A DNA stretch of 64,000 bases from assembly GCA_900546565.1 (NCBI GenBank), contig URDC01000001.1:83796-147795 (forward strand). Reading direction: 5' to 3'. Origin of the DNA: an uncultured Opitutales bacterium (lineage in GTDB: Bacteria; Verrucomicrobiota; Verrucomicrobiia; Opitutales; Intestinicryptomonadaceae). Position 1 is the first letter of the stretch; each line of letters opens with the position of its first letter. The position numbers and the translations under genes are program-made. This document shows, one piece after another, positions 11,131 through 63,680 of this stretch. Below the pieces are notes generated by a model, which was not told the DNA's origin, did no database searches, and worked only from the letters and a program-made list of their open reading frames with translations.

Positions 11131-11139
11131 TTGATTGTA

Positions 11140-26674: not shown

Positions 26675-28216
26675 ATGAATCAAAAGATAGCTGTTTTAGA
26701 TTTCGGTTCGCAATATACGCAGGTCATAGCGCGCAGAATCCGCGAGTTGAACGTGTATTCGGAGATTATGCCGTTCAACACAAAGGCGTCGGTGCTCAAA
26801 AAGCAGGGCGTTTGCGGCGTAATTCTTTCGGGCGGTCCCGCCAGCGTTTTGGCGAAAGGTTCGCCGCGTCCCGACCCGAAGGTTTTCGAGCTCGGAGTGC
26901 CCGTGCTCGGCATTTGCTACGGATTGCAGCTGATGGGTAAAATGCTCGGCGGCGCGGTGGTTTCGAGCAAGCAGCGCGAATACGGGTTGGGAAAATTGTC
27001 GTTTACGGAGTCGGATAGCGATTTGCTCAAAGGGATAAAGTCGCCGATTCAGGTTTGGAATTCGCACGGCGACAGAATGGACAAGCTCCCGACGGGGTTC
27101 AAGGCGATTGGCACGACCGAAAATTCTTCGTGCGCGCTTATCGAAAACAAGGCGAAGCGTTTTTACGGAATGCAGTTCCACCCCGAAGTCGCGCACACGC
27201 CGCGCGGCATTGAAATCATCAAGAATTTCCTCTACAACATTTGCGGTTGCACGGGCGACTGGAAAATGTCGGACTATGTCGAAACGTCGATTAAGCGCAT
27301 TCGCGAAACTGTCGGCGACAAGAAGGTTATTTTGGGTCTTAGCGGCGGCGTGGACTCGTCGGTGGCGGCGGCTCTTATCCACAAGGCTATCGGCGAGCAG
27401 CTCACCTGCGTGTTTGTCGACAACGGTTTGTTGCGCAAGGACGAACGCAAGAAGGTTGAAGCACTTTTCAAGAACAATTTCAAAATCAAGATGAAGACCG
27501 TTCGAGCCGAAAAGCTTTTCCTCGGGCGTCTCAAAGGCGTGAAAGACCCCGAGCGCAAGCGCAAGATTATCGGAAAGACGTTTATCGAGGTCTTTGACAA
27601 GGCGGTTAAATCAATTGGTCAGGTCGATTTCTTGGCGCAGGGGACACTGTATCCCGACGTTATTGAGAGTGTGCCGATTGCGGGGAATCCCGCCTCGCTC
27701 ATCAAGAGCCACCACAATGTCGGCGGGTTGCCGAAGAAAATGAAGCTCAAATTGCTCGAACCCCTCCGTGAGCTCTTCAAGGACGAAGTTCGCGCGCTCG
27801 GCAAAGAGCTTGGGCTTTCGAAGGAGGTTTTGTGGCGTCATCCGTTCCCTGGGCCGGGTCTTGGTGTTCGTGTTGTCGGCGAGGTCAAAAAGTCTTACTG
27901 CGACGTTCTGCGCGAAGCCGATGCCATTCTTATGGAGGAAATGTATGCAAGCGGTCTTTATTATGGTTTATGGCAGGCGTTTGCGGTATTTGTTCCCGTC
28001 AAGACTGTCGGTGTAATGGGTGATGAGCGCACGTATGACAATGTTATTGCCTTGCGCATTGTCGAAAGTCAGGACGCTATGACTGCCGACTGGGCGCACG
28101 TTCCCCACGACATTTTAGGCAAGATTTCCAATCGAATTATCAATGAGGTCAAAGGTGTCAATCGTGTGGTTCTCGACATTTCTTCGAAGCCTCCTGCGAC
28201 AATCGAATGGGAATAA
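26675..28216 (+). CDS. guaA: GMP synthase (glutamine-hydrolysing)
   Basis: 513 aa with the class-I GATase domain (GICYGLQ, HPE) and the ATP-PPase SGGVDSS motif. Confidence 0.95.
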
Positions 28217-28575
28217 TTTTATAGTTTCGAAAGGGGCGGCGGTTGCCAACGGCAATCCCGCCTTTGACTATTTATTAAAGTAAAGCAGTTATTGCGAAGC
28301 AATCTGCGCCACTTCACAACATTTAAAATACCCTCGACGGAGAGCGGGGTGCTTTGCCCCCGAGGTTGAATTGGCGAAGCCAAGAGCTGAGCGACGATAA
28401 GAGCGAGTTAACTCCTACCCGCGAAGTATTTCCGTCCTTCCCCCGTTTGGTAAAGCAGTTATTGCGAAGCAATCTGCGCCACTTCACAACATTTAAAATT
28501 TTTCGAAAGAGGCGGCGATTGCCAAAGGCAATCCCTCCTTTGTTTATTTATTGAAGTCGTATCTATAAATAAATC
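28217..28575. repeat. mosaic intergenic repeat region: two 54-bp direct repeats (28277-28330 and 28446-28499) plus a shared 42-bp module and small GC hairpins
   Basis: TAAAGCAGTTATTGCGAAGCAATCTGCGCCACTTCACAACATTTAAAAT occurs twice. TTGAATTGGCGAAGCCAAGAGCTGAGCGACGATAAGAGCG (28366-28407) recurs at 37657-37696 and, reverse-complemented, at 42447-42488. The 54-bp repeat recurs reverse-complemented and diverged at ~34120-34165. Confidence 0.85.
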
Positions 28576-32783: not shown

Positions 32784-32870
32784 CGTTTTTGCAACGGACG
32801 ATTGCCCCGCGCGGGGCGTCGTCCTTTTTTATTTCCGAAAAACCTCCAAATTAGAAACTATCCAAAAATA

Positions 32871-33749
32871 ATGAAAAGTATGACGGGCTTTGGGCGCGAA
32901 TGCGCCGACTTCGAAGATTTTTCGGTGTCGGTCGACATCTCGTCGGTCAACAAAAAGGGTCTCGAAATTTCGGTGTCGCTGCCGCGCGAATGGGGCGCGA
33001 TGGAGCGTCTTATCGGCGCGGAGCTCAAAAGGCGTTTTTCGCGCGGAAAGTTCAATGTCGCGCTCAATGTCGAGTTTAAGCTTGCCGAAAGCGGCGTGTT
33101 TGCCGACGCCGATATGCTTGCGGCGTCGCTTGCAAAGCTGCGCGATTTTTGCGGGGCAAACGGCATTGACCCGCGTTTGACTTCCGCCGATGTGCTCGAA
33201 CTCAACCGCCAGCTTTCCGAAAAATCCGTGCGGCGCGTTGTCGATGTCGAAGCCCAATGGGGTAAGCTTTTGCCCGTTTTTGCCGCCGCCTGCGAAAAGC
33301 TTGACGAAATGCGTGGCGTCGAAGGCGCGGCGTTGAAGCTCGACCTCGCCGAGCGCGTCGGCAGAATAAAAGCCCTCGTCGCGCGCGCGCGTGTGTTTGC
33401 CGCGGAATCGCCCGCCAAGTATCGCGAATCGCTTATGCAGAAGTTGGCGGCAATCGGGCTTAATCTCGACTTCAATGACGAGCGCGTTTTGAAGGAGGTT
33501 TGCATTTTTGCCGACAAGTGCGATGTCGCCGAAGAATTGACGCGGCTCGAAAGCCACGTTGCCCAATTTTATTCGATTATTGAGCTTGACGAAGCCGTCG
33601 GGCGCAAGCTCGATTTTCTTTGTCAGGAGATGGGGCGCGAAATCAACACGACGGCGAGCAAAGCCAACAATCTCGACCTCACCAAAATCGCGATAGACTT
33701 GAAGAACGAGCTTGAAAGGGTACGCGAGCAAGTCCAAAACCTCGAATAA
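32871..33749 (+). CDS. yicC: YicC-family stress-induced protein
   Basis: Begins MKSMTGFGR..., as E. coli YicC begins MIRSMTAYAR. The C-terminus DVAEELTRLESHV...AVGRKLDFLCQEMGREINT matches the YicC C-terminal domain. Confidence 0.85.
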   Translation: MKSMTGFGRECADFEDFSVSVDISSVNKKGLEISVSLPREWGAMERLIGAELKRRFSRGKFNVALNVEFKLAESGVFADADMLAASLAKLRDFCGANGIDPRLTSADVLELNRQLSEKSVRRVVDVEAQWGKLLPVFAAACEKLDEMRGVEGAALKLDLAERVGRIKALVARARVFAAESPAKYRESLMQKLAAIGLNLDFNDERVLKEVCIFADKCDVAEELTRLESHVAQFYSIIELDEAVGRKLDFLCQEMGREINTTASKANNLDLTKIAIDLKNELERVREQVQNLE

Positions 33750-33865
33750 AAAAACGGGCGAGGACGTACGCCTCCGAGGCAAATTATTTCATTATTTACC
33801 TGAAAATGTTTCCCAGTCGGGAAACATTTTTTGTATTTAAATTTGCCCCAGAGGCGCACTCGCAG
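33750..33865 (+). repeat. MITE-like palindromic element (copy B) abutting the yicC stop codon, containing an intrinsic terminator
   Basis: AAAAAACGGGCGAGGACGTACGCCTCCGAGG-caaat...atttg-CCCCAGAGGCGCACTCGC with an inner hairpin AATGTTTCCCagtcGGGAAACATT + TTTTGTATTT (33803-33838). Confidence 0.8.
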
Positions 33866-34315
33866 CCAAAAATGACTCGCGTTTGCTACGCAAACCGTTT
33901 GACACGCTACTGCGTGCCCTTCGGGTGCGTTTTGCAAACGCATCTATACGCGCCTTCGGCTTGTATTCGCCCCTACGGGGTCGTTGCTTGGCAACGCTCA
34001 AACGCGCTACGCTTGTTTTCGGTTTCGCTTCGCCTCACATACCTAAGTATGCTTCGGCTCGAATGGACATTCGGAGAGTTTCGGGGTATGCGGTATTGCC
34101 GAAGGCAATCGCATAGGGGTATTTTATAAGTTGGGAAGTGGCGCGGATTGCTACGCAATATCGCTTTGCTTTAATAGATAGACTAAGGCACATCGGCAAC
34201 GTCGATTGCCGTCTCTTACAAAAAATAGACAAAAAGTGTTGACATAATCTGCGTTTTTTCGGACAGTCGTCGCGCCTTATAAAGAATAAGGCTTTCTCAT
34301 AATCCCATAAATATG

Positions 34316-34356
34316 GGGCGTTTGCACTAACCTGCAAACGCCCTCATTGTTTTTTG
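34316..34356 (+). terminator. intrinsic terminator in the ORF-free region upstream of the lipoprotein gene
   Basis: GGGCGTTTGCActaaccTGCAAACGCCC + tcaTTGTTTTTTGT. A TTGACA hexamer lies ~85 nt upstream (34228). Confidence 0.5.
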
Positions 34357-34438
34357 TGTTTCGGACGCGGCGATATGCGGCTAAATATGCGTCCAAAAAA
34401 GTGTTGAAGCCTCGGGCTTTTTTTGCTCATATAGCGCA

Positions 34439-35692
34439 ATGGAAAAATTTAGAAATCTGTGGCTGCTGCCGGCAGTCGCTCTGCTGGGTGCGGGTTGTGG
34501 TGTAGTCAAGGAAAACGCGTTTTCTACCGACGAGTCCAAACTCTGGACAATCGGTCAGGAACTCTCATTCTTTTCGAAATATTCGGTCGATGCGCAAGTG
34601 CTCAAAAACGACGAATCGGTTTTGATTTTCTCGCCCACCTACCACGGGCGCATTTTCACTTCCGCATTCGGCGACGAATCCTCGCCCAGCCTCGGCTGGT
34701 TTAACCGCGAACTTGTCGCGCTTAAAAACCGCAACCTGCGCACAGCCTTTATCGGCGGCGAAGACGCGCTCTTCGTCGGGCCCGAGGGCGGCGACGCCTC
34801 CGTATACTTCGACCGCGGCGCGCTCTGGACGGAGGAAAACCGCAAACTTCCCGAAATCGTCTCCACCAACGCTTGGAAAATGGTTTCGCGCTCCGACACC
34901 CGCGCGCGCTTCGAAGCTCGCGGCGAGCTCACCAACGCCCTCGGCACGAAATTCCCGATTTCCGTCGAACGCGAAATCTCGCTGCTCTCGCGCGACGACG
35001 TCTCGAAAATTCTCGGCGTCGAAATCCCGCAGGGCTTAAAACTCGTCGCATTCCAGTCGATGAATAAGCTCACCAACACCTCCGACAAAAAGTGGACCGA
35101 AAAAACCGGAATGCTTAATATGAGCGTCAAAAGCTGCTTCAACGCCAACAAGACCGTCTACGCCTTCGTGCCCTACCGCGCGGGCGACGCCTCCGAATAC
35201 GGCGATGTCGTGCGCGACAACGTTTTCGATTCCGCCACTTCCGCCTCCCCTCTCGGCGACCGCATTTCGATTTTCGACGACTATATCCGCTTCAAATGCG
35301 ACGGCCGCCACATTTCGGGCATCGGTGTAAACTCGCGCCGCAGCGAGGGCATAGCCTTTTCCTACGACGACAAAAACGCAATACTGACAATCGTCCTCTA
35401 TATAAAACCGTCGGGACGCCGCGCCTATTACCCCGCCTCTTGGCGCAACGCCCAAACGGGCTTCGACGGCGAGGCAATCTCCGTCTACAACAACGGGCCA
35501 GCTTCGCGCAACATATACTTCTCCAACCTCTTCTACGAAATCGCAACATACTCGCCCGCGCTCGACTTGGACGCAGGCCGCAGCCAGTTCCACTTGCAGC
35601 GCACCTTCCACTTTCACGGTTCGGAATACGACTTGGACTTGCTCGCCTATAAACTAACGGGCGTCTCCTTAAAACAAATGCGCGTAAAATAA
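34439..35692 (+). CDS. hypothetical lipoprotein
   Basis: 417 aa beginning MEKFRNLWLLPAVALLGAGCG..., a lipobox-type signal peptide. I recognise no family. Confidence 0.7.
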   Translation: MEKFRNLWLLPAVALLGAGCGVVKENAFSTDESKLWTIGQELSFFSKYSVDAQVLKNDESVLIFSPTYHGRIFTSAFGDESSPSLGWFNRELVALKNRNLRTAFIGGEDALFVGPEGGDASVYFDRGALWTEENRKLPEIVSTNAWKMVSRSDTRARFEARGELTNALGTKFPISVEREISLLSRDDVSKILGVEIPQGLKLVAFQSMNKLTNTSDKKWTEKTGMLNMSVKSCFNANKTVYAFVPYRAGDASEYGDVVRDNVFDSATSASPLGDRISIFDDYIRFKCDGRHISGIGVNSRRSEGIAFSYDDKNAILTIVLYIKPSGRRAYYPASWRNAQTGFDGEAISVYNNGPASRNIYFSNLFYEIATYSPALDLDAGRSQFHLQRTFHFHGSEYDLDLLAYKLTGVSLKQMRVK

Positions 35693-35736
35693 ATTCCGCC
35701 GATTTCCAATAACACAGCTCTTCTTTCATAAAAAAT

Positions 35737-36786
35737 ATGGACAAATTTCTCAGCGAATTATTGCAAACCCGCTCGCCCACGGGCGCCGAAACTGAGGCTG
35801 CCGCGGTAGTCGAAAAATACATCAAACCAGTCGCCGACACCTTCGAGCGCGACGTTCTCGGCAACCGCATAGCCACCCTCGGCGGCGGCGCAAAAAAGCT
35901 TATGCTCGCAGGCCACATCGACGAAATCGGCTTGCAGGTTTCCTACATCGATTCCGACGGCTTCATATTCTTCCAGCAGCTCGGCGGGCACGACAACGTT
36001 ATGATATCGGGCAGGGGGGTTCTGATTTTGACCGACCGCGGCGCAGTCGCGGGCGTCACGGGCAAACGTGCAATCCATCTTATGGACGCCAAAGAGCGCA
36101 AGGAAGTGCCCGAAACCCACCAAATCTGGATTGACATCGGTGCGGCAAACAAGGCGGAGGCGGAAAAACTCGTCAGCGTTGGCGACCCCATCGTCTACCA
36201 AACTTCGCTTGTTGAAATGTCCAACGGCCGCTACGCTTCCCGCGCCTTCGACGACAAAGCGGGCGCGTTCGCAATTTTCGAAACATTGCGCCGACTCTCC
36301 GCCGAAAGGGCATCTCTTGAATACAAACTTGTCAGCGTCGGCACCACGCAGGAGGAAATCGGCACGCGCGGCGCGACAACTTCCGCCTACGCCGTCGACG
36401 CCGACATTGCCATAGCAGTCGACGTAACCCACGCCACGGATTTTCCCACTTGCGACTGTCGCAAATTCGGCGATGTCAAACTCGGCAAGGGCGTCGTCAT
36501 CGCACGCGGGCCCAACCTCAATCCGAAAGTCTCCGCCCGCCTCATAGAGCTTGCCAAGGCAAACAACATTCCCTACCAGCTCGAAGCCGAGGCTCGCCCC
36601 ACTGGCACCGACGCACGCGTAATCCAGATGACGCGCGGCGGCATAGCCACTGGGCTTCTTAGCGTTCCCCTGCGCTATATGCACACACCCAACGAAGTCG
36701 CCGACCTCGCCGACATCGAATCCTGCGTGCGCCTGCTTTGCGCGTTCGCAAAATCCCTCAAAAATTCCGACGATTTCACATTCTAA
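35737..36786 (+). CDS. M42-family metallo-aminopeptidase (FrvX/YpdE/CelM-like)
   Basis: 349 aa with the M42 signature (MLAGHIDEIGLQV..., AFDDKAGAFAI..., EEIGTRGA...). Confidence 0.85.
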   Translation: MDKFLSELLQTRSPTGAETEAAAVVEKYIKPVADTFERDVLGNRIATLGGGAKKLMLAGHIDEIGLQVSYIDSDGFIFFQQLGGHDNVMISGRGVLILTDRGAVAGVTGKRAIHLMDAKERKEVPETHQIWIDIGAANKAEAEKLVSVGDPIVYQTSLVEMSNGRYASRAFDDKAGAFAIFETLRRLSAERASLEYKLVSVGTTQEEIGTRGATTSAYAVDADIAIAVDVTHATDFPTCDCRKFGDVKLGKGVVIARGPNLNPKVSARLIELAKANNIPYQLEAEARPTGTDARVIQMTRGGIATGLLSVPLRYMHTPNEVADLADIESCVRLLCAFAKSLKNSDDFTF

Positions 36787-36787
36787 A

Positions 36788-37543
36788 ATGAGACGCATTC
36801 TACTCACAAGGCAGGACAATTCAGCGGTTGCCGAACATTTCAAAGGCGGAGACTTCGAGATTTTGGAACTTCCCCTAATCGAGTGCATCCACAACGTCGA
36901 CGAGTCCGAAGCCTCCGACGTTTTCGGCGAACTCGGCGGCTACGATTGGCTCGTATTTTCAAGCCCGAACGCCGTCCGCGGCTTTTTCAAGGCGTTCTTC
37001 CGCGAATTTAACGACATTCGCGCCCTCGGAATCGCCCGCATTGCCTGCATAGGCGATGCCACCGTCCGCGAGCTTTCCAAATTCTACCTCCGCGCCGACG
37101 TCGTTCCCGAAGTCCAGACCGCGGCGGCTCTCGCCGAGGCAATGGGCGAATACGAAACCCTCGAAAATCTCAAAATTCTCTCCGTCCGCGGAAATCTCGC
37201 CTTGCCCGATTTAATCAAGGCTCTCGAAGCCCAGCGCGCCATAGTCGACGTTTTCGAAGTCTACAAAACAAACCTCGTCGCACTCAAATCCGACGATGCC
37301 GTAGTTGTAGATTTCCGCAAGAAGGGCGCGGACGCCGTTGTTTTTGCCAGTCCCTCGGCGGTCGAAAGTTTTGTCCGCAATCTCGACGCCATTGTTTTGG
37401 AGAAGGACGCTCTGCGCCCAAAAGTTGTCGCAATCGGTTCGACGACTGCCGACGCCGCAAAGAAGAAGGGAATGAAAGTCTCCGCCGTTTCGGAATCCCC
37501 GCGCCCCGAGGATATCGCAGCCGCCGTAAAATCCCTCTTCTAA
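36788..37543 (+). CDS. hemD: uroporphyrinogen-III synthase
   Basis: 251 aa HemD-like (ILLTRQD...WLVFSSPNAVRGFF...VVFASPSAVESF). Its start overlaps the upstream stop. Confidence 0.8.
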   Translation: MRRILLTRQDNSAVAEHFKGGDFEILELPLIECIHNVDESEASDVFGELGGYDWLVFSSPNAVRGFFKAFFREFNDIRALGIARIACIGDATVRELSKFYLRADVVPEVQTAAALAEAMGEYETLENLKILSVRGNLALPDLIKALEAQRAIVDVFEVYKTNLVALKSDDAVVVDFRKKGADAVVFASPSAVESFVRNLDAIVLEKDALRPKVVAIGSTTADAAKKKGMKVSAVSESPRPEDIAAAVKSLF

Positions 37544-37745
37544 AAACGGGCGAGGGCGTGCGCCTCCGAGTCGAATTTATTTTCTATAATCTAGAAAAGT
37601 TTTCCTTTCGGAAAACTTTTTTTGTTTTTTAGATTCGACTCGGAGGCGCACTCACGTTGAATTGGCGAAGCCAAGAGCTGAGCGACGATAGGAGCGTGTT
37701 AAAATCTGACGCGTCTTTTTAGCACGCGCCTCGCCCGTTTTTTTC
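37544..37745 (+). repeat. MITE-like palindromic element (copy C, ~200 bp) with terminal inverted repeats, abutting the hemD stop
   Basis: Left end AAAAACGGGCGAGGGCGTGCGCCTCCGAG-tcgaat. Inner terminator AAAAGTTTTCCtttcGGAAAACTTTT + TTTGTTTTTT (37595-37630). Then attcga-CTCGGAGGCGCACTCACG, the TTGAATTGGCGAAGCC... module, and right end GCACGCGCCTCGCCCGTTTTTTT (reverse complement of the left end). Confidence 0.85.
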
Positions 37746-37858
37746 GCACCCACGTTTGTCCTAATTTTTTTATATGACGGGCACAGGCAGAGGATTCGCC
37801 TTTGGCAAATATTCCTCCTTTGTCAAACGCCTACACGAAAAATTATTTTATAAAACAG

Positions 37859-37888
37859 AAAGAAGTTCCATACGAAACTTCTTTCTTT
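37859..37888 (-). terminator. hairpin module AAAGAAGTTCCATACGAAACTTCTTT downstream of the RND permease gene (likely its terminator)
   Basis: Perfect stem with a U-rich tail on the minus-strand RNA. A near-identical hairpin recurs at 42719-42746. Confidence 0.5.
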
Positions 37889-37896
37889 ATCAATTT

Positions 37897-40800
37897 TTAA
37901 ACCTGTTGTCTTTTCTTGTTTCCGAACAGTTTGCGGATAACGAAGTAGAACACTGGGGTCATAAAGCAACCCAGAATCGTGACCCCAAGCATACCGTAGA
38001 GCACGCACGTTCCCAGAGGTTGGCGCAATTCGCACCCCGGCCCCGATCCGAACGCGAGCGGCACCACGCCCAAGATGAACGCCATAGATGTCATCGCAAT
38101 CGGGCGCAGACGTTGTTTTGAAGCCACTTCAATAGCGTCGTAAATGTTCTCTCCCGAGTCCTCGCGCTGCTTCGAAAACTCCACAATCAGAATCGCGTTT
38201 TTGCACGCCAGCCCGATAAGCACGATAAACCCAATCTGCGTCATCAAGTTGTTGCTCAGCCCTCGGTAATTTATCCCCAACAGCGCGAACAGCAACACCA
38301 ACGGCACAATCAGGATAATCGAAAACGGCAGCGTCCAGCTTTCATAAAGAGCCGCCAGAATCAGGAACACAAACAGCACGCAAGTAAAGAAAATATAGAT
38401 AGCCGTGTTGCCCGCCTTTTTCTCCTGATACGCAAGGTCGGTCCATTCAATGTCCATTCCCGCGGGCAAAACACGCGCGGCAAGCTCCTCAATGGCCTTG
38501 ATAGCCACGCCCGTGCTCACGCCGTGCGCCAAATTGCCCTGCGCTGCGGCGGTCTGATACAGGTTGTAGCGGTAAATTGCGTCGGGGCCCACAATGCGCC
38601 TAATCGACAACACCGAGCCAAGCGGCACATTTTCGCCCTTCGAATTTTGCACGCGCAACTTGTAGATGTCCGAAATGTTCGTTCGGCTCGTGCTTTCGGC
38701 TTGCGCCATAACGCGGTAGACGCGCCCGAGAATGTTGAAGTCGTTGACATACACCGAGCCCAAATTGTATTGCAACGTCTGGAAAATCGACGTTATCGGC
38801 ACATTGAGCTTCTGCGCGCGCTCTCGGTCTATGTCCAAAAACAGCTGCGGATTGCGCGCCTTGTAGTGGGCATACGCGCTCGTTACAATCGGCATTTTGT
38901 CGATTTCGTCGGCGAGCAGACTGATGTATTTTTCCACGGCGTCCGTTCCCAGCCCGACCTTGTCTTGCAGATAAAACTTGAAGTCCGATCCCGAGCCAAT
39001 CCCCGGCACCGACGCGGGAGTTACCACGTTCGTGCGCGCTTCGAGCACGTTTTCGAGCAGCTTCACGCGCACTTCCTCCATAATTTTCTCCATATCCAGA
39101 CCCTCGCGGTCGCGCTTTTTGCGGTCTTCAAGACGCAGCGTGACGTCGCCCGTCTTGTCGGATTTCGTCGTCGAAACTACGTGCTTTATGCCCTTTATTC
39201 CGCCCAGAATCTTGTCGATTTTTTCCATAACCTTGTCGGTTCTTTCAAACGACGAGCTTTCGGGCATCATAATTGCGGCCTTGATAATGCCTCTGTCCTG
39301 CTTGGGGATAAACCCCTTCGGCGTCTGCATAAACGCCTCATACGTGCAAAACAAAATTCCGCCGTAAAGCAGCAACATCAAAACTGAGAACCGCAACACG
39401 TGCCTGATTGCAATCCCATAGGCGTCCGACATCTTTTCGAAGCCGAAGTTAAATCCTCTGAAAAGCAGTCCCAGCGTATAGTGATACACCAAGTGCGCCA
39501 AATTCTTCTTTGCGGCGTGGTCGTGGTGGCGCATAAACAACGCGCACAGCGCGGGCGTAAGCGTAAGCGACACAACACCCGAAATTATGGTCGACGCCGC
39601 AATCGTAATCGCGAACTGCCTGTAAAACTGTCCAGAAATGCCCGTCAAAAACGCTGTCGGAACAAACGCTGCACTCAGCACTAACACAATCGCAACAAGC
39701 GCGCCCTGAATCTGCGTCATCGAAATTTCCGTCGCCTTGACTGCGTCCAACCCCTTTTGCATATTGCGTTCGACATTCTCCACCACCACGATTGCGTCGT
39801 CGACGACAATACCGATGGCAAGCACAAGCCCGAACAACGTCAAATTGTTAATCGTGAATCCGAACGCATACATGACCGCGAACGTTCCAATCAGCGAAAC
39901 GGGAATCGCGAACAGCGGAATCAACGCCGCCCGCAGGTTCTGCATAAAAAGCAGCACAACCAAAATCACCAAAATCACGGCTTCGAAAATCGTCCTGTAA
40001 ACCGCATTGATTGATTCGAGCGTGTATTCCGTCGTGTCATAGCCCACAACACAGTCAATCCCGGGCGGGAACGACTTTTTCATTTCCGCGACAGTCGCCT
40101 TAATCTGCTTTGCTGATTCAATCGCATTCGTCCCCGGCAACTGGTATGCCGCAAGCGAAACCGACTTCATACCGTTAAGCCGCGCTTCCGTGTCGTAGTT
40201 ATAGGAACCAAGTTCGACCCGCGCAACGTCTTTGAGCTTTATAATGCGTCCGTCGGGCATAAATTTTACAATGACGTTTTCGAATTCCGACTTAGTTTGC
40301 AGACGCCCGCGCGCATTGATTAGCAGCTCGAACGCCGCACCCGTGCGCAGCGGCGGCGCATTCAGACGCCCCGCTGCAACCTGCTTATTCTGCTCCTTAA
40401 TCGCCGACACCACTTGCGACGGCGACAAATCCAATGCCTCCAACCTGTCGGGTTGCAGCCAAATTCGCATACTGTATTCGCGCACGCCCGAGACCGTAAA
40501 TTCGCTCACGCCATACACGCGCGAAAGCTTGTCCTGCATCTGCGTTATCGCATAGTTCGACAAATACACCTTGTCGCGCGAGCCGTCCGGAGAAATCAAG
40601 TTAAGCGACATAATGAAGTCCGTCGACCTCTTCTTCACCGTCACGCCCAAGTCGCGTATTTCCTGCGGCAACCGCGACGTCGCCTGATTGACGCGGTTCT
40701 GAACCAAAACCTGCGCCATATTGATGTCTGTTCCCGTCTCGAAATACACAGATATCGCCCAACTGCCGTTTGCCTGCGCCGAGCTGAACATATAAAGCAT

Positions 40801-41028
40801 ATTCTCGATGCCGTTAAGCTGCTGTTCGAGTGGAGAAATCGCCGTGTTTATAATAACCTGCGGCGACGCTCCCGAATACGTTCCGTATACAACCACCGAC
40901 GGCGGCGCGATGTTCGGATACTGCGTAATCGACAAATTCCAGAACGACACCAGCCCGACCAGCGTGATGACAATCGAAATTACCGTCGCAAAAATCGGCC
41001 TGTGTATGAAAAAATGCGAAAAAGTCAT
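37897..41028 (-). CDS. RND-family multidrug efflux permease (AcrB/MexB-like)
   Basis: 1043 aa with 12 TM segments and two large periplasmic loops. The N-terminus MTFSHFFIHRPIFATVISIVITLVG is typical of the HAE1 (hydrophobe/amphiphile efflux-1) RND family. Confidence 0.92.
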   Translation of the reverse strand: MTFSHFFIHRPIFATVISIVITLVGLVSFWNLSITQYPNIAPPSVVVYGTYSGASPQVIINTAISPLEQQLNGIENMLYMFSSAQANGSWAISVYFETGTDINMAQVLVQNRVNQATSRLPQEIRDLGVTVKKRSTDFIMSLNLISPDGSRDKVYLSNYAITQMQDKLSRVYGVSEFTVSGVREYSMRIWLQPDRLEALDLSPSQVVSAIKEQNKQVAAGRLNAPPLRTGAAFELLINARGRLQTKSEFENVIVKFMPDGRIIKLKDVARVELGSYNYDTEARLNGMKSVSLAAYQLPGTNAIESAKQIKATVAEMKKSFPPGIDCVVGYDTTEYTLESINAVYRTIFEAVILVILVVLLFMQNLRAALIPLFAIPVSLIGTFAVMYAFGFTINNLTLFGLVLAIGIVVDDAIVVVENVERNMQKGLDAVKATEISMTQIQGALVAIVLVLSAAFVPTAFLTGISGQFYRQFAITIAASTIISGVVSLTLTPALCALFMRHHDHAAKKNLAHLVYHYTLGLLFRGFNFGFEKMSDAYGIAIRHVLRFSVLMLLLYGGILFCTYEAFMQTPKGFIPKQDRGIIKAAIMMPESSSFERTDKVMEKIDKILGGIKGIKHVVSTTKSDKTGDVTLRLEDRKKRDREGLDMEKIMEEVRVKLLENVLEARTNVVTPASVPGIGSGSDFKFYLQDKVGLGTDAVEKYISLLADEIDKMPIVTSAYAHYKARNPQLFLDIDRERAQKLNVPITSIFQTLQYNLGSVYVNDFNILGRVYRVMAQAESTSRTNISDIYKLRVQNSKGENVPLGSVLSIRRIVGPDAIYRYNLYQTAAAQGNLAHGVSTGVAIKAIEELAARVLPAGMDIEWTDLAYQEKKAGNTAIYIFFTCVLFVFLILAALYESWTLPFSIILIVPLVLLFALLGINYRGLSNNLMTQIGFIVLIGLACKNAILIVEFSKQREDSGENIYDAIEVASKQRLRPIAMTSMAFILGVVPLAFGSGPGCELRQPLGTCVLYGMLGVTILGCFMTPVFYFVIRKLFGNKKRQQV

Positions 41029-41029
41029 A

Positions 41030-42189
41030 TTATTTGCCAGCCTCCTTTATCCCCTTCATCACGGGCGATACTTCCTTTCCAGCAACGGCGCGTTGCAAAC
41101 CGTTAACAATAACCCTGTCGTCCGCCGTCAGGCCCTCTTCGATAATCTGCATATTGCCCACGCATTCGCCCACGCGCACAATGCGGTATTCAGCCCTATT
41201 GTTCTTGTCCACAACATACACAAAGCGGTTTACGAGGTCGGTTCCCACCGCGAGCTCGGGCACAAGCAGACATTCACGCGGCGCGCCGCCGAGCATTTGA
41301 ATATTCGCAAACATACCCGGAAACAGCCTGCCGTCCTTGTTGTCGATTTCCGCCCTGAGCTCGATACTCGACGACGTAAGCGCATTGTCTACATACGTTA
41401 TCTTGCCGAAGTGCGACGGTTCTTTCTCGTCCATCAGAGTGATTTTCACGGGCGGGCCCTCGCGCTTTTCCGAACTTATCCGCCCCAAAACGCCGTTTGC
41501 CGTATATCTTATAACATCGCGTTCGCTGATTTCAAAATACGCATAAATCGTGTCCTTCGAGACCACCGTCGACATCAGCGTCGAAGCCCCGTCAATGAGG
41601 TTTCCCTCGTCCACAAGCCTGCGGCTTACATATCCCGAAATCGGCGACGTGATTTTCGTGAATTCCAAGTTCAGCTCCGCTTCGCGCAACTTCGCTTTCG
41701 CACTCATCAAAATTGCCTCCTGCGACATCACTTCGCTTTTTCGCGTTTCCAAAACTTCTTTTGAAACCGCATTAGACACATACAATTCCTCAGCGCGTTT
41801 CAGATTGCTCTTTGCAAGCTCTATCTTCGATTCCACTTCGCGCACCGTCGCCTTGTTCGCGTCTACAATCGCCTGAAACGGACGCGCGTCGATTTCAAAC
41901 AGCACGCTTCCGGCTTTCACATAGTCGCCGTCTTTGAACAGAATCTTTTCCAAATAGCCCGACACGCGCGAGCGAATCTCGACCGATTTCTCGCCTTCCA
42001 AGCGCGCCGTATATGCGTCCCAGACTTCAATCATACGCTTTTCGGGCAGCATAACTTCGACTTTGTTGAAGACTTTCTTCTGCACCGCTTCCTGCTTTGC
42101 AGGGCACCCGCATAACAACATCGCAGCTGCCGCGACAGCCGCCATAACCCCGACCGATTTATTCGATTTTCTAAACATTTCCATCATAT
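41030..42189 (-). CDS. RND efflux membrane-fusion (periplasmic adaptor) protein, AcrA-like lipoprotein
   Basis: Coiled-coil/biotinyl-like adaptor architecture with an N-terminal lipobox (AAAAMLLCGC). The start is set at MMEMFRK (42189); the tabulated ORF extends to 42301 into the repeat element. A 1-nt gap separates it from the permease gene. Confidence 0.85.
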
Positions 42190-42439
42190 AAAAAAAATTC
42201 CGAAAAATTGTTTCATAAAAACTCGGTTCATTCCCGCTACGCGACAAAACGCGCCGCAATCCGACAACTTCCCCGACATTGCCTATACAAAATACACGCA
42301 ACCTTTAATCAAAATATTCTTCCAACCCCTCAAAAAAAATCAACACTTTTCTGAGCCGCTGGGCGGGTCGTCCCATTGCGATATATTCGAAAGCGCGCGA
42401 TAGTGCTAATGCATAGACCACCCGAACAACAAAATTAGA

Positions 42440-42800
42440 TTTTAACACGCTCCTACCGTCGCTGAGCTCTTGGCTTCGCCAATTCAACGTGAGTGCGCCT
42501 CTGGGGCAAACACAAAAGTTGCGAAGCAAGCTTTTGGGAAGAATAAAACACGAAGTGTTTTACCCGAAGGGCGACCACGTTTTACGTGGGAAGCTTTGCC
42601 GATAGGCAAAGAGCCGAGCGAAGCGAGTGCCGAGACATTTGTGAAACAAATGCGAGTTCAAAACAGCGCGGATTTTGCGTAGCAAAACCAAGCGAGCGAG
42701 TTCAATTTAATAATCAAAAAAAAGAAGTTCCGAATGGAACTTCTTTCAGCATTATAAAAATAAATTTTGCCCCAGAGGGACGTCCTCGCCCGTTTTTTAT
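42440..42800 (-). repeat. MITE-like element (copy D, reverse orientation) with a ~200-bp internal insert of serial short hairpins, abutting the stop of the upstream minus-strand gene
   Basis: Read on the minus strand: stop-AAAACGGGCGAGGACGTCCCTCTGGGGCAAA, then terminator hairpin GAAGTTCCattcGGAACTTC + T8 (42711-42746), then a string of hairpins, then GCCCCAGAGGCGCACTCACG and the TTGAATTGGCGAAGCC... module. Confidence 0.8.
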
Positions 42801-43560
42801 TTGAGAGAGGCGGAACGCCACCAATCATAGTGCTCATTTTCAAGCTCCTTGACTGAGGGCATCGGATAAAACAACATTTCGCCGCCGCCGCCGATAAAGA
42901 AGCCAGAGCGAATCATTCTATACGGAAATTCGCTTGTCGTGCGCAATAAAACCTTGCTGTTCTTGCCGCCTTTTTGCGAAACCTGAATCAGGCAGTCGCG
43001 CATATGGTATTGATTCGCATAGGGCAAAACAGTGATGTCTCCATTGTAAACATCGTCTTCAAGTTCGCCAAGCTTCATATCGCAAAAGGCAATCTTGTCA
43101 AAACGCACCAAACGGTCTGACGCAGTAATTTCGCATGCGTATTGTGCGGGATTTAAAATGCTCACAACCCGCGTGCGCGACGGGGCGAGCGTCTGATACA
43201 TATACGGGTGGATTTTCCGGTCGGGGACAAATTCGCCGCGCGAAAGTTTCAGAGCCTTGCCATCACTCGTGACGACATATAAATTGCCGACGGCCGAAAA
43301 CGGGACGTGTTCGAGTACCCTGTAAACCGATAAATACACCGACTTGTGCGGCGAGCCGTCCGCGTGCGGCTTGCAAAGTTCTTCGAGCCTGCCTACGGGC
43401 AAATAGTCGCTTTTAAATTTCTTGTCCAGCTCGAAAAAAATCGCTTGCGAATAATTGCGCCTCAACGAACCCGTCGCAAAATACGCGCCGAATTCCTTCG
43501 GCGATAAATTCGAGGCAATCAACGCTTCGGGCGAGAGCGATAAATACAGATGAGTTTGCA
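42797..43560 (-). CDS. hypothetical protein
   Basis: The start is set at MQTHLYLSL (43560); the tabulated ORF extends to 43828 with an implausible Cys/Trp-rich leader. No recognisable family. Divergent from the holA-like gene. Confidence 0.55.
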
Positions 43561-43864
43561 TATAGACCTTTCGTCTTTCGTTGTTCTGACGCTTTTTGGC
43601 GATTTTTCCACAGGAAGCCCAGCCCCATATCCCGACTCTTCCAACCCAGTCCCCGCAACGCGCGCGCCATGTTGAATAACATGCCACAAACAGAGTCGGA
43701 AGAACCGAAAAAAAAGAGCGGAACCACCGCGGAAGGAATCCTCCGTTAACGAGTAGATTATTTTCTTCCTCTCCCGATAAGTCAACCATAAAATACGTTC
43801 CAGCCCAACCTCCACAACATAAATACACTTGAAATCGGCGCGCAAAAATCCATTTTAAAAAACT

Positions 43865-44974
43865 ATGGCAGCAAAAGTGTTGAAGTTGATAGTTTCCGAC
43901 GACGATTTTATAGCCGCAAACCGCGCGCGCGAACTCTTCGAGGAAGAGTCTAAAACCGTCTCCGACGAAATGTCTCTCGAAATCATCGACGCCGCAGCCG
44001 GCAAAACCGACGAGGCCGTCGACGCCTGCAAACGCATAGTTTCCGGGGCTGCTACAATGCCGCTTTTCGGCGGCAAAAAAGTCGTATGGGCGCGCAACGT
44101 CAATTTTTTGGGCGATTCGCCCGTCTCGAAAAGCGACGCCGTCAAAGAGGCGGTCGCCGATATGGCACAGGCACTCGAAGAAATGTCGGGCGACAACGCC
44201 GTTGTCGTAATGAACGCCTCGCCCGTAAACCGCGTCAGTAAAACCCTCAAAACACTCGCCGCAATCGCGGATTTCGAAGACTACAAAACGAAGGATTCCG
44301 AAAACGCCTGCACCGACCTGCTAAAAATGGAGGCAAAAAAACTCGGCGTCAGCTTCGAGGGGGCTTCGGCGGAAACCCTTTCGGGAATAGTCGCCAACAA
44401 TACCCGAATGGCATTGCAGGAACTCAAAAAACTCGCCGTCTACGTCAATTTCGAACGCCCGATTTCCGAGCGCGACGTTATCGAAATGGTTCCGATTTTC
44501 GGCGAGGGGGATTTCTTCGGAATGGCAAACGCCTTCTATTCGGGCGACGTAGAAAAGGCATTGGGCGCATTGCGCCGGTATTTTTTCACAAATAAAACCG
44601 CATCGGCGCGCCCCATAATAACGGTTTTGCAAAAACAGAATTCCATACTCATACAAATCCGCGCACTCATGGATTCCAAAATTCTGCCGCGCACAACCTC
44701 GCCCCAGCCCAAGGGCGCAGTCGCAAACGCGGCTGAAATGTTCGGCGAATTCTACGAGGGCTCGAAACCAAAAACGCCCTACAATCTGTTCACGCAAAAC
44801 GAGTGGTACGCAGGCTCGAAACTCGCACCAGTCGCCGCCCGTTTCACACTCAAACGGCTAATCGACATTCAGATGAACTTAGTCCGCGCGTTCGAAGACC
44901 TCATTTCGCGCCCGGGCAACGACGAACCCATTATGCGCGAGTTTTTCATTCGCTCGCTCTCCGTCAGCCAGTAG
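43865..44974 (+). CDS. holA: DNA polymerase III delta subunit-like protein
   Basis: 369 aa with overall HolA-like architecture (N-terminal Rossmann-like LIVSDDDF...ARELFEE region and a helical C-terminus). The call rests on gestalt only. Confidence 0.5.
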   Translation: MAAKVLKLIVSDDDFIAANRARELFEEESKTVSDEMSLEIIDAAAGKTDEAVDACKRIVSGAATMPLFGGKKVVWARNVNFLGDSPVSKSDAVKEAVADMAQALEEMSGDNAVVVMNASPVNRVSKTLKTLAAIADFEDYKTKDSENACTDLLKMEAKKLGVSFEGASAETLSGIVANNTRMALQELKKLAVYVNFERPISERDVIEMVPIFGEGDFFGMANAFYSGDVEKALGALRRYFFTNKTASARPIITVLQKQNSILIQIRALMDSKILPRTTSPQPKGAVANAAEMFGEFYEGSKPKTPYNLFTQNEWYAGSKLAPVAARFTLKRLIDIQMNLVRAFEDLISRPGNDEPIMREFFIRSLSVSQ

Positions 44975-45031
44975 CCAGCCTTACTCCAATTTCTCCGCGT
45001 CCGCGGGTTGTCCACAACCCACACTCCGGAC

Positions 45032-45946
45032 TTAATAAACCATTTTTTCGGCAAGCTCAAACGCCCTCGAAAAACTGCCGTCATTGGCAATGCCTTTGCC
45101 CGCAATTCCGAACGCCGTTCCGTGGTCGGGGCTCACCCTCAAATGCGGCAAATTCATCGACACATTTACAGCATTGTCGAATTCCACCGCTTTAAGCGGT
45201 GCGAGAGCCTGGTCGTGATACATCGAAACAATGCAGTCGAATTCGCCCTTCAACACGCGCTCGAAAACCGTGTCCGGCGGCAGCGATACCGACAAATTCG
45301 GAAAATCCCCCCGCAGCTTTTCAAGCGCAGGATTTATCAAATCGATCTCCTCCCGCCCGATAAGCCCGTTTTCACCCGCGTGCGGGTTCAGCCCGCAGAC
45401 GGCAATCCTCGGATTCTCCACACCGCGCAGTTTTTTCGCAAGCTCAGCCGACGCCCCGACGGCCCGCGCAATCTTCGCAAAGTCGAGCAGCTTCGGCACA
45501 TCTTTTAGCGGGTCGTGCCACGTGACCAAGCTCACAATGAATTTCGTTCCCGCAAAACTCATCACTGGCGTTCCGCCCCAACTGTCGGCGAAAAATTCCG
45601 TCTGCCCCTGATATTCGAAGCCGACTTCGCGCATACATTCCTTCGAAATCGGCGCGGTAACGACCGCCGCAAACTTTCCCTCCGTGCAGCCGCGCGCGGC
45701 AACCTTCAACGCTTCGAACGCCACCCGCGCCCCTTCCGGACACGGACGCCCCGCAACCGCTTCAAACCCAGCATCGCCGATTGTCAACTTTCCGACCGAG
45801 TCGGGCAGGGCACTCAAAAATTTTTCGTGCCCAATCACCACGGCCGAAGACGCCTTCGCCGCGTTCTTGGATACCCACGACGCAATTATCTCCGGCCCGA
45901 CCCCCGACGGGTCGCCGACCGTTATCGCAATGGGTTTTCTGTCCAT
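45032..45946 (-). CDS. pdxA: 4-hydroxythreonine-4-phosphate dehydrogenase
   Basis: 304 aa with PdxA motifs (PIAITVGDPSGVGPEI, GLNPHAGENG, DCIVSMYHDQ). Confidence 0.88.
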   Translation of the reverse strand: MDRKPIAITVGDPSGVGPEIIASWVSKNAAKASSAVVIGHEKFLSALPDSVGKLTIGDAGFEAVAGRPCPEGARVAFEALKVAARGCTEGKFAAVVTAPISKECMREVGFEYQGQTEFFADSWGGTPVMSFAGTKFIVSLVTWHDPLKDVPKLLDFAKIARAVGASAELAKKLRGVENPRIAVCGLNPHAGENGLIGREEIDLINPALEKLRGDFPNLSVSLPPDTVFERVLKGEFDCIVSMYHDQALAPLKAVEFDNAVNVSMNLPHLRVSPDHGTAFGIAGKGIANDGSFSRAFELAEKMVY

Positions 45947-45982
45947 ACCAAAACTCCGAAAAACAAAAACCGCCCACGAAAA

Positions 45983-46792
45983 TCAGTCGAGGTGGTTGTT
46001 GCCGCGCGGGACAATGTAGTGTCGGTTTTCGACAGTGAAAAATTCGAGAAACTTTCTGCCCGCCGCAGTCCGCACATTTCCCGACTCCAAAATTGCGAGC
46101 GCATTTTTGCGCGCGGCGGGTGTTGCATAAACCTCGCTGTAAAGCCGCTTTACTTCCGCAATGTCCTCGCGGGGCATCCTGCGGCGGTTCATACCGATGA
46201 GATTAAGCCCCCCGACATTGTTGCGGGCATACGCAATCACGAAGGGCGGCACATCCAGACTCGTCGCGGAGTTGCCGCTTATAATCACACCTTCGCCTAT
46301 TCTCACGCGCTGGTGCACCATAACGCCGCCGCTGATAAACGCGTCGTTGGCCACTTTGACATGACCCGCGCACGCCGAGAAATTCGCCAAAATCACATTG
46401 TCTGCCAACACGCAGTCATGGCCGATGTGCGCGCTGGCCATAATCAGACAGTTGCGCCCGACAATCGTCGCCTTGCCTTCAAACGTCGCGCGGTGGATAG
46501 TCGCCGATTCGCGCACAACCGAACCGTCTCCGATTTCCGCAAAAGTTTCCAGCGACGCGTCGAAATGCAGATCCTGAGGGTCTCCCGCAACCACAGCGAA
46601 AGAGCAAATCCTGCATCCCGTGCCGATACGCGCCCCGCCGCACACCCGCGCGTGGGGTTCTATAACCGAGCCGTCGCCAATGCGTGCCCGCCCCTCGACG
46701 AGCGCATACGCGCCGACTTTCACACCGTCGCCCAAGACGGCGTCGGGCGAAACAATCGCAGTGGAATCAATGTTGTTCATTTGCCGCTTCAA
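45983..46792 (-). CDS. lpxA: acyl-ACP--UDP-N-acetylglucosamine O-acyltransferase
   Basis: Left-handed beta-helix hexapeptide repeats and the LpxA C-terminal helical domain. An alternative start is MNNIDSTAIV at 46780. Confidence 0.88.
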   Translation of the reverse strand: MKRQMNNIDSTAIVSPDAVLGDGVKVGAYALVEGRARIGDGSVIEPHARVCGGARIGTGCRICSFAVVAGDPQDLHFDASLETFAEIGDGSVVRESATIHRATFEGKATIVGRNCLIMASAHIGHDCVLADNVILANFSACAGHVKVANDAFISGGVMVHQRVRIGEGVIISGNSATSLDVPPFVIAYARNNVGGLNLIGMNRRRMPREDIAEVKRLYSEVYATPAARKNALAILESGNVRTAAGRKFLEFFTVENRHYIVPRGNNHLD

Positions 46793-54000: not shown

Positions 54001-54060
54001 AATTTATAAAAACCCCGCTATTGGCAGCCCGCCCGGCGGGACGGCCTTGCCCGTTTTTTT

Positions 54061-63059: not shown

Positions 63060-63277
63060 TTCTTTGCTAAAACGGGCGAGGGCGTGCGCCTTCGTTGCGA
63101 ATAATTTTATTTTTTACGGAAACATTCCACATTCGTGGAATGTTTTTTGTATTTAGATTCGCAACGGAGGCGCACTCACGGCTAAAAGACGGTTTTATTT
63201 CGGACTTGCGACCAATCGGTCGCCGACGCCTCATAAAACGCGAATCCTGCCTCGAGCCTCGCCCGTTTTAGCCAGCA
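63060..63277 (+). repeat. MITE-like palindromic element (copy E) with terminal inverted repeats, upstream of lepA
   Basis: AAAACGGGCGAGGGCGTGCGCCTtcg-ttgcgaat. Inner hairpin GGAAACATTCCACattcGTGGAATGTTTT + TTGTATTT. Then attcgcaa-CGGAGGCGCACTCACG ... right end CGAGCCTCGCCCGTTTTA. Confidence 0.8.
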
Positions 63278-63539
63278 CCCACGGTTATTCTAATCCGAAG
63301 AAATAATGCAAACGAAAGAGAGTAAAAAAAAGATTTTCCGAATGGGAAGATTTTATAGTTTCGAAAGAGACGCGGATTACTTCGTAATATCTGCTTTATC
63401 TCTCATTAAAGAAAAGCGGAACGAAGTTAAGCTTTTCCATTATTTTTCGGATTAGGGTAAACGTGTGAGCCGAAAAAACGCGCGAGGCGCGTGCCATAAA
63501 ATCGCGGCTTTGCGAGCCGTAGCGTACTAAACGTACGTG

Positions 63540-63680
63540 AGGCGAAGCGAAACCGATTTTTGGCCGTGAGAGCGCCTCTTAATCGAATCTAAAAAATCAA
63601 AAAGCGTTCTTCGAATGAAGAACGCTCTGGTATAAATTAAATAAATTCGATTAAGAGGCGCACGCCATCGCGCGTTTTTT
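63540..63680 (-). repeat. MITE-like element core (copy F, reverse orientation) between lepA and sod
   Basis: Read on the minus strand: GGCGTGCGCCTCttaa-tcgaat, then hairpin AGAGCGTTCTTCattcGAAGAACGCT + TTTTGATTTTTT, then attcga-ttaaGAGGCGCTCTCACGG. This is near-identical in architecture to copy C. Confidence 0.8.

Follow-up and report, generated by a model that had tools for sequence, protein, structure and literature searches.

The window analysed here, a 64,000-nucleotide stretch of contig URDC01000001.1 from an uncultured Opitutales bacterium, carries several copies of a repeat of about 225 nt, one of which begins at the stop codon of hemD (37543). The unit folds into three helices (P1, P2 and P3) around a junction, and the tip of P2 has the shape of an intrinsic terminator. 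As a repeat family with a covarying structure and terminators built into it, the finding is real and has good support. The family is specific to a lineage of uncultured, Opitutales-like human-gut Verrucomicrobiota, and it is both a new family and a new architectural variant of the known bacterial interspersed palindromic repeats. On balance, it is best understood as a modular nested-palindrome repeat of the general kind represented by repetitive extragenic palindromes (REPs), bacterial interspersed mosaic elements (BIMEs), BOX elements and the mycobacterial TRIT motif, which serves as a terminator at gene ends and diversifies by recombination among its copies. The observations from which this reading starts are the fold with its covarying stems, the terminator shape with its orientation, the fusion to stop codons and the modular replacement of parts between strains.

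Five copies (A to E) were found in the window. The left motif CGGGCGAGGRCGTRCGCCTYC occurs four times (33755, 37547 and 63073 on the + strand, and 63654 on the - strand with 3 mismatches), against 0.01 occurrences expected by chance, and the right motif RGAGGCGCACTCRC occurs five times (33850, 37642 and 63166 on the + strand, 42489 and 63566 on the - strand), against 0.08 expected. Repeat finding and self-BLAST retrieved the same copies as the motif search, and identified 63069-63678 as a 620-nt imperfect palindrome in which copies C and D lie tail-to-tail. An earlier note on this DNA had counted at least six copies, whereas a profile made from 36 copies gave three full matches (37543-37741 +, 63069-63269 + and 63678-63475 -) and two partial ones (33751-33887 +, and 42796-42704 - with a 3' arm at 42537-42487). 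Including the tail described below, the full copies extend over 37543-37764 +, 63069-63298 + and 63447-63678 -, and the broken or expanded copies occupy 33751-33887 + and 42442-42796 -. The modules at 28217-28575 that the note had included in its count are not of the same family, and share only a free-standing 47-nt module (GTTGAATTGGCGAAGCC...) with 37656-37702 and 42442-42488. The reverse-complement copy that it placed at 63540-63680 is genuine, with a true span of 63447-63678.

Either strand of the unit folds into a nearly gap-free three-way junction, with a whole-unit fold energy of about -105 kcal/mol and a z of about -9, equal on both strands. P1 is a 13-bp clamp in which the 5' strand AAAACGNGCGAGG pairs with CCTCGCNCGTTTT about 175 nt downstream, the outer pairs being formed by an A-run and a T-run. 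P2, a hairpin of about 105 nt that begins two bases past P1, has arms of 18-25 nt, inside which lie an AT-rich paired stretch and then the tip, composed of an A-tract, a GC hairpin and a T-tract. There are at least three subfamilies of P2 arms (GCGTGCGCCTC.., GCGCGTAATGGTTGGCGTGG.. and GCGCGTTTCTTTGGTGGTGG..), unrelated in sequence and the same in shape, and in both main subfamilies a C.T mismatch is preserved near the foot of P2, two pairs away from the junction. The boundary sequence GAGG(N)CGTRCGCCTC forms in subfamily 1 a near-perfect palindrome of 14 bp, which subfamily 2 lacks. P3 is a hairpin of about 80 nt that starts 1-3 bases after P2, and its several interchangeable interiors preserve a common layout of base stem, 2x2 loop, second stem, internal loop and short apical stem. 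The interior has a single orientation, with P2 on the gene side and P3 on the tail side, in all of the ~47 distinct copies.

Beyond the 3' strand of P1, the unit continues into a one-sided tail of about 23 nt (..TGGTTCTAA). An alignment of 33 copies shows this tail to be kept across species (..CAYNNNGYTGGTTCTAA(G/T)CCGA), with TTCTAA found 19-24 nt from P1. The inverted repeats about 200 nt apart that had been taken for the termini of the element do exist (37543-37555 / 37729-37741 and 63069-63081 / 63257-63269), but the right-hand one is not terminal; the element is asymmetric, since the conserved tail, ending in TTCTAA, reaches ~23 nt past it. The A-tract and T-tract of the flanks had been suggested as a target-site duplication. 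These tracts are the outer base pairs of P1, and the flanks of 36 copies contain no direct repeat. Because the tail sequence GGTTCTAAKCC resembles a T-loop, a tRNA/tmRNA scan was relevant, and it found none. A promoter reading of the tail, as TTAGAA-N17-TAAAAC on the reverse strand, was rejected; the conserved last T of the -10 element is missing there, and the promoter scan was silent.

The variable arms of different copies had been described as differing in sequence while staying mutually complementary, and this compensatory variation is statistically supported in the 36 copies. The test covered 45 pairs and 1602 cells, with column shuffles and slid partners as controls. Paired cells amounted to 94.3% of the 1602, against 71.9% in the column shuffles and 37-50% with the partners slid, and changes on both sides were seen in 33 of the 45 pairs. 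The covariation score was 0.569 against 0.173, and none of 500 shuffles reached 0.569, although the covariation figures are not to be taken as probabilities because the copies are related. The slid-partner controls preserve the relatedness among copies, yet pairing collapses in them. Three P1 positions were left free by the search pattern, and since these are also complementary (in 32, 36 and 36 of the 36 copies), the pairing of P1 is not an artefact of that pattern. When all helices are counted, mismatches of the G.U type (26) are nearly as common as those of the A.C type (20), whereas in P2 alone, among 34 arm variants, there are 15 G.T and 1 A.C mismatches on the element's own strand, mostly at two recurrent positions; a U.G wobble is retained at the same position of P2 across diversified arms. 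Selection on secondary structure is plausible, and templated quasipalindrome correction could also hold the arms complementary.

The tip of every copy has the shape of an intrinsic terminator in per-copy folds. This agrees with the earlier description of a perfect central hairpin followed by a T-run, and a simple terminator scan called the tips of all five window copies, each on the strand of its element (33802-33831 +, 37593-37622 +, 42747-42720 -, 63118-63147 + and 63628-63601 -). The tip is oriented with the gene upstream. In 24 of 35 copies, a co-oriented open reading frame (ORF) of at least 200 codons terminates 1-6 nt before AAAACG, and most often the TAA stop shares one or two of its A's with P1. 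The three stop-fused copies recognized from the window sequence, which start at 37543 (hemD), 33749 (a yicC-like gene) and 42797 (ORF 42797-43828), are thus instances of a general arrangement. After hemD, there is no further terminator ahead of the hairpin that belongs to the convergent RND transporter gene. The remaining copies form tail-to-tail dimers between divergent genes, with each 5' end towards a promoter region, as between lepA and sodA in the window and between rpmI and a DUF6786 gene in a related species. An enrichment of TAA stops was dropped as a signal; stop-codon type carries none, because TAA already accounts for 25 of the 34 stops in the window.

The multi-copy nature of the family, one of the first claims made for it, extends well beyond the five copies in 64 kb, with ~47 distinct full copies elsewhere. 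Metagenomes were scanned with the self-complementary pattern AAAACGNGYGWGG-N{160,190}-CCWCRCNCGTTTT, which detected 34 loci with P1 motifs paired 160-190 nt apart, where chance would give a few by our own estimate. Of these loci, 32 are real copies, nearly all from human-gut assemblies, and together with the strain loci they bring the total of distinct full copies, again from human-gut assemblies, to ~47. Scanning genome contigs with the left motif gave just single chance matches in high-GC genomes, and the viral contigs scanned contained no copies. The window HemD, whose sequence carries a Pfam HEM4 domain, is identical residue for residue to proteins on many human-gut metagenome contigs and metagenome-assembled genomes (MAGs) from Hadza, Nepal and other cohorts, and its homologues are labelled as MAGs of Verrucomicrobiaceae, Opitutales or Puniceicoccales. 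Three loci are 100% identical to the window across 34069-47543, and the remaining hemD loci represent strains that are ~98.7% identical. A species with a HemD only 63% identical to that of the window also has the element, as two full copies placed tail-to-tail between rpmI and the DUF6786 gene. No element follows hemD in that species, where a plain bidirectional terminator stands alone.

Comparison of strains over three spacers indicates that the variation consists of replacement at a fixed site rather than insertion or excision. In the hemD spacer, strains ~98.7% identical in the flanking genes retain P1, P2 and the tail, and the 5' part of P3 is normal in some of them and consists of the free-standing 47-nt module in others. 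At gene 42797, the stop codon is followed by copy E in the window strain, and in other strains this site is occupied by a copy from another subfamily that is 5'-truncated and matches, in what remains of it, the copy at locus L090. Upstream of lepA, loci encoding an identical 599-aa LepA share P1, tail and flanks, and differ in unrelated P2 arms, tips and P3 hairpins. A flank-pair search for a clean filled-versus-empty site in the three spacers that could be compared yielded replacements and partial deletions only. Such exchange of interior modules at an unchanged site points towards recombination between copies and away from cut-and-paste insertion. Exchange is not confined to the element. Strains that are 98.7% identical carry, in place of the terminator of the RND transporter gene (37857-37886 - in the window), an unrelated hairpin with the same form, so plain terminators outside the element are also exchanged. 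The family has the mosaic character of BIMEs, as P2 arm types, tips, P3 types, the 47-nt module, strings of mini-hairpins and the second 'TTTCGAAAGRGGCG' family combine variably by locus and strain.

Breaks in synteny also occur at spacers that bear the element. The window and locus L065 diverge at 34069, to the left of which the window has the yicC-like gene and the otherwise identical L065 has rpmI/rplT/pheST, and loci L119 and L122 have different neighbours upstream of lepA (locus positions ~1830-2500). These breaks may be real recombination or rearrangement, or they may be metagenome mis-joins. Since the repeats coincide with synteny breaks and contig ends in two spacers, they probably fragment the MAGs of this lineage or cause mis-joins in them. 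The sign of the GC skew flips near 33-34 kb and again near 52-54 kb; the first flip coincides with the repeat-rich spacer at 33.7-34.4 kb and with the point of divergence between the window and L065.

Table 1. Copies of the repeat in the window and the parts of copy B, which follows hemD.
Feature	Position	Strand	Description
hemD TAA stop	37541..37543	+	ORF 36788-37543; last A is the first base of the copy B P1 stem; from ORF list, stop offset -2
Copy B, P1 5' strand AAAACGGGCGAGG	37543..37555	+	Pairs with 37729-37741
Copy B, P2 long hairpin	37558..37651	+	Arms 37558-37575 and 37634-37651; AT-rich internal pairing; conserved C.T mismatch beside the junction
Copy B, P2 tip	37593..37629	+	A-tract, GTTTTCC-TTTC-GGAAAAC, T-tract; terminator scan and fold; intrinsic-terminator shape for hemD
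Copy B, free-standing 47-nt module	37656..37702	+	Substitutes the P3 5' half in the window strain; normal P3 in other strains
Copy B, residual 3' P3 base GACGCGTCTTTTTAGCACGCG	37708..37728	+	Alignment and P3 folds
Copy B, P1 3' strand CCTCGCCCGTTTT, then more T	37729..37741	+	Pairing with the P1 5' strand
Copy B, conserved 3' tail TTTCGCACCCACGTTTGTCCTAA	37742..37764	+	Right end of the family unit; 33-copy tail alignment
Copy C, full	63069..63298	+	P1 63069-63081 / 63257-63269; tip 63118-63147; tail to CTAATCCGA; 5' end towards the lepA promoter region
Copy D, full	63447..63678	-	P1 63666-63678 / 63476-63488; tip 63601-63628; tail 63447-63475; 5' end towards the sodA side; tail-to-tail with C
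Copy A, partial	33751..33887	+	P1 5' strand and complete P2, tip 33802-33831; fused to the yicC-like stop (ORF 32802-33749)
Copy E, partial/expanded	42442..42796	-	P1 5' strand 42784-42796 fused to the stop of ORF 42797-43828 (-); tip 42720-42747

The two incomplete copies (Table 1) have each lost the 3' strand of P1. In copy A, the P2 hairpin is followed by strings of mini-hairpins and then by a P3 remnant at 34019-34061. Copy E contains ~190 nt of inserted mini-hairpins (42511-42703), followed by the P2 3' arm (42489-42510) and the module (42442-42488). The mini-hairpins in these copies (33870-34010 and 42511-42703) are 15-20 nt long with 3-4-nt loops, of the forms GTTGC-NNNN-GCAAC, CCCC-TTCG-GGGG and similar. 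At 6336-6537 of locus L090, such strings stand in place of P3.

If the unit acts as its structure suggests, the tip hairpin would terminate transcription of the upstream gene. RNA that reads through the tip would fold P2 into a perfect duplex of 20-25 bp, a likely substrate for RNase III, as Correia hairpins are reported to be, and would next meet P1 with its U-run, which could act as a second terminator of a clamp type. In this way, the unit would insulate neighbouring genes. Spread and diversification may proceed mainly by homologous recombination, gene conversion or template switching between dispersed copies, with the conserved P1, junction and tail providing homology anchors for cassette swaps, and classical cut-and-paste transposition would have no part in its movement. 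The proposal that the family is a mobile cassette delivering terminators survives in that the element is multi-copy and bears a terminator-shaped hairpin oriented with the upstream gene. As a model of a miniature inverted-repeat transposable element (MITE) it is not supported, given the lack of a target-site duplication, the asymmetry and the failure to find a clean empty site in the three spacers compared, and the term mobile is supported in the sense of dispersal and exchange only.

Several points weigh against the recombining gene-end terminator. Termination at the tip is predicted from its shape alone, and the about equal numbers of G.U and A.C mismatches fit upkeep at the DNA level, or neutral upkeep, as well as they fit selection on RNA. 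Efficient termination at the tip would mean that the 3' halves of P2, P3 and P1 are seldom transcribed, and selection on the whole fold at the RNA level would then be difficult to account for. For copies C and D, between divergent genes, there is no obvious gene for a terminator to serve. Recombination accounts for diversification and not for the first arrival of a copy at a new stop codon, and the conserved tail and the C.T mismatch at the P2 base resemble features that a protein would recognize, although no such protein was found. The unexplained first arrival, the conservation of the tail and mismatch, and the copies between divergent genes keep a trans-acting enzyme under consideration.

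Such an enzyme would make the repeat a true non-autonomous transposon of a MITE-like or REPIN-like kind, mobilized in trans, for example by a single-strand HUH/Y1 enzyme of the RAYT or TIRYT type that recognizes the hairpins and tail, with the terminator as a passenger or a tolerance device. The family is multi-copy, dispersed, and present in some related species and absent in others; P1 resembles terminal inverted repeats; and the one-sided tail, the C.T mismatch and the missing target-site duplication would all fit HUH-type single-strand elements. Known repeats include families associated with RAYT or TIRYT as well as GTAG REPs, with examples in Opitutus terrae (PMC3733652). The 15 to 1 excess of G.T over A.C in P2 suggests a strand-specific hairpin, but this bias rests mostly on the two recurrent positions, P2 is not a doublet of self-palindromic REPs, and the GTAG tag is not conserved. 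No strain comparison gave a clean empty site, no ORF-sized segment was found between a pair of P1 motifs, and neither the 630 kb searched nor the annotated loci contained an autonomous partner with matching ends. A tblastn search of the 630 kb with RAYT and IS200 queries returned nothing better than E=0.48, although these queries were approximate and a partner could lie elsewhere in the genome. We regard the transposon as unlikely. An explanation in which the three-way junction itself is the functional object, as a cis-acting 3' untranslated RNA domain or a small RNA concerned mainly with mRNA stabilization, with an RNA-binding protein or with regulation of translation termination, is improbable. 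It would account for the strong covariation in all three helices, the conserved loops and layout of P3, the persistent U.G wobble in P2 and the fusion of the element to stop codons. However, both strands fold equally well, an internal terminator would normally preclude synthesis of the full fold, and broken copies without half of the fold persist at gene ends. The unrelated interiors in strains with identical flanking proteins argue against a sequence-specific RNA function. Rfam gave no match at the gathering threshold, and a permissive search gave only weak matches to generic long hairpins resembling miRNA precursors, far below threshold.

The perfection of the stems over 20-25 bp, beyond what a terminator needs, may instead suggest that the compensatory changes are unselected, the arms being kept matched by template-switch quasipalindrome correction in neutral material that survives where it is harmless, just after stops. 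The absence of an overall asymmetry between G.U and A.C, the equal folding of both strands and the existence of decayed copies would be expected in that case. The P1 strands, however, still covary across ~175 nt with two stable hairpins between them, the architecture is retained between species with 63%-identical HemD, mismatches and wobbles are conserved at fixed positions, and the bias in orientation and position towards stop codons is strong, so that neutral upkeep appears very unlikely. The remaining explanation, which we find the least likely, is a DNA-level site in which P1 and the tail are recognized by a recombinase or DNA-binding protein and the interior is exchanged site-specifically, or a cruciform involved in chromosome organization. 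Replacement breakpoints do coincide with the conserved module boundaries and synteny breaks are located in element-bearing spacers, but ordinary homologous recombination at conserved boundaries would give the same pattern, and some of the breaks may be metagenome mis-assemblies at repeats. The 14-bp boundary palindrome of subfamily 1 would fit such a site but is missing from subfamily 2, the annotated loci contain no linked recombinase gene, and the interior is never inverted relative to the tail in ~47 copies, so it is not an invertible segment. A more speculative reading, again improbable, is an overwriting element, in which an enzyme (of the single-strand HUH type or a recombinase) recognizes a scaffold of P1, C.T mismatch and tail that marks gene ends and copies the interior cassette of P2 arms, tip and P3 from locus to locus at rates far above point mutation. 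If this were true, near-identical strains would have different 3' ends for one gene. In a related reading, the element could target stop codons directly.

Other identities were considered. A classical MITE is not supported by the absence of a target-site duplication in 36 copies, by a right end that lacks an inverted partner or by the absence of an ORF-sized P1 pair. A target duplication of 3-4 bp (TAA/CTAA, as in IS5/PIF-like elements) was rejected; it fits copies B and C and fails in many others, and no inverted repeats lie just inside it. Many copies have TAA at both ends because the left one is the stop codon and the right one belongs to the tail motif, a coincidence that fails in several copies. 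An inverton is excluded by the uniform orientation of the interior. Insertion into the loop of a pre-existing terminator was rejected because the resemblance of P1 from locus to locus is too close for host sequence, and the variable arms are not acquired foreign 'spacers', as their types amount to a few mutually related variants.

Among the closest known systems are REPs, REPINs and BIMEs, which are high-copy intergenic palindromes located mostly downstream of genes and sometimes touching the stop, which form head-head or tail-tail dimers and mosaics with other motifs, and which also show compensatory stem variation, a composition by locus that differs between strains, and proposed roles including termination and mRNA stabilization. 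REPs occur near or overlapping stop codons, and Opitutus terrae is rich in them, with GTAG REPs abundant (PMC3733652). The unit described here differs in its size (~225 nt and three helices, against a palindrome of 20-40 nt), in its built-in terminator of A-tract, hairpin and T-tract, in P2 arms that are not palindromic, so that P2 is not a REP doublet, and in the absence of a RAYT in 630 kb by approximate queries. It also lacks a conserved GTAG or CGTC tag; GTAG is found at the P3 base in some copies (..TTTGTAGCACGCG), and TTTTTAGC or CCTGCCTCGAG in others. TRIT, the 'tuberculosis Rho-independent terminator' of Mycobacterium, is a palindromic motif with ~150 copies per genome (PMC3152330). 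Its position relative to the stop is tightly distributed and partly overlaps the coding end, and it has been read as a lineage-specific type of terminator (PMC3152330), in both of which it resembles the present family. However, TRIT is a single short hairpin of conserved sequence restricted to Mycobacterium, whereas the hairpins here are hypervariable and belong to a three-way junction with an internal U-tract terminator and a one-sided tail. The BOX elements of Streptococcus pneumoniae are modular (boxA-boxB(n)-boxC), are co-transcribed with neighbouring genes and make new insertions slowly, all of which we count as likenesses (PMC3049150). Like the present units, they are composites whose internal modules vary, they are predicted to fold very stably and they have no transposase of their own, but they are unrelated in sequence and architecture, carry no oriented terminator and are not fused to stops.

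The imperfect palindromes of integron attC sites also lie just after the stops of cassettes, conserve structure more than sequence and function in a strand-specific manner. The family was nevertheless rejected as attC; it has no R''/R' core sites (RYYYAAC / GTTRRRY) and no cassette arrays, its ends are AAAACG.. and ..TTCTAA, no integrase was seen in the gene tables, and its loci are scattered after housekeeping genes (hemD, the yicC-like gene, the lepA region). MITEs of the Correia (Neisseria) and ERIC types lie between genes, measure 100-150 nt or more and have inverted ends; once transcribed they form long hairpins, which RNase III or RNase E cleaves and which can influence termination and the stability of mRNA. 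In Correia elements, the terminal inverted repeats are 26 bp long and the target duplication is TA, whereas the element here has no duplication, is asymmetric, and has an interior that is replaced rather than conserved. As each feature has precedent in REP/BIME, TRIT, BOX or Correia elements, no general principle is altered. If the terminator/insulator reading is correct, a whole lineage of gut Verrucomicrobia would have adopted a single recombining three-helix module as the standard for many gene ends, and this would constitute a natural terminator library, with one scaffold and dozens of hairpins, of use in the study of terminator function and 3'-end evolution. Interiors that differ between strains with an identical flanking protein are a sensitive strain marker in metagenomes, and cassette replacement clearly illustrates the evolution of non-coding regions through exchange instead of mutation.

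The window contains further repeats. A second interspersed family consists of TTTCGAAAG(R)GGCG, then a long hairpin (e.g. GGCGGTTGCCAACGGCAATCCCGCC), then CTTTG, and is found at 28216-28275, 28500-28560, 34121-34175, 53630-53680, 53822-53870, 53944-54015 and 63350-63400, often adjoining the main element or gene ends. Another composite has the head AAAACGGGCAAGG / AAAACTGCGAGG followed by CCGTCCCGCYGGGCGGGC, and is located at 54030-54065 (-), at 42360-42385 and at ~6900-6950 of locus L065. Its copy at 54061 is likewise fused to a TAA stop, so a head resembling the 5' strand of P1 is common to more than one type of repeat. The intergenic mosaic after ORF 26675-28216 includes an exact 50-nt direct repeat (28280-28329 / 28450-28499, 170 nt apart), and that after ORF 52072-53592 includes a direct repeat of ~89 nt that is ~89% identical (53640-53728 / 53822-53907, 182 nt apart). 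Within the ribosomal protein operon, the gap between rpsJ and rplC is unusually long (749 nt, 11131-11879). It contains tandem units of ~47 nt at 11146-11400 (GAGGTGTGGCGTGGATTGAATTTYCCTG..CGCCTC..) together with more degenerate copies, and its GTGTGGCG motif recalls the P2 arms of subfamily 2.

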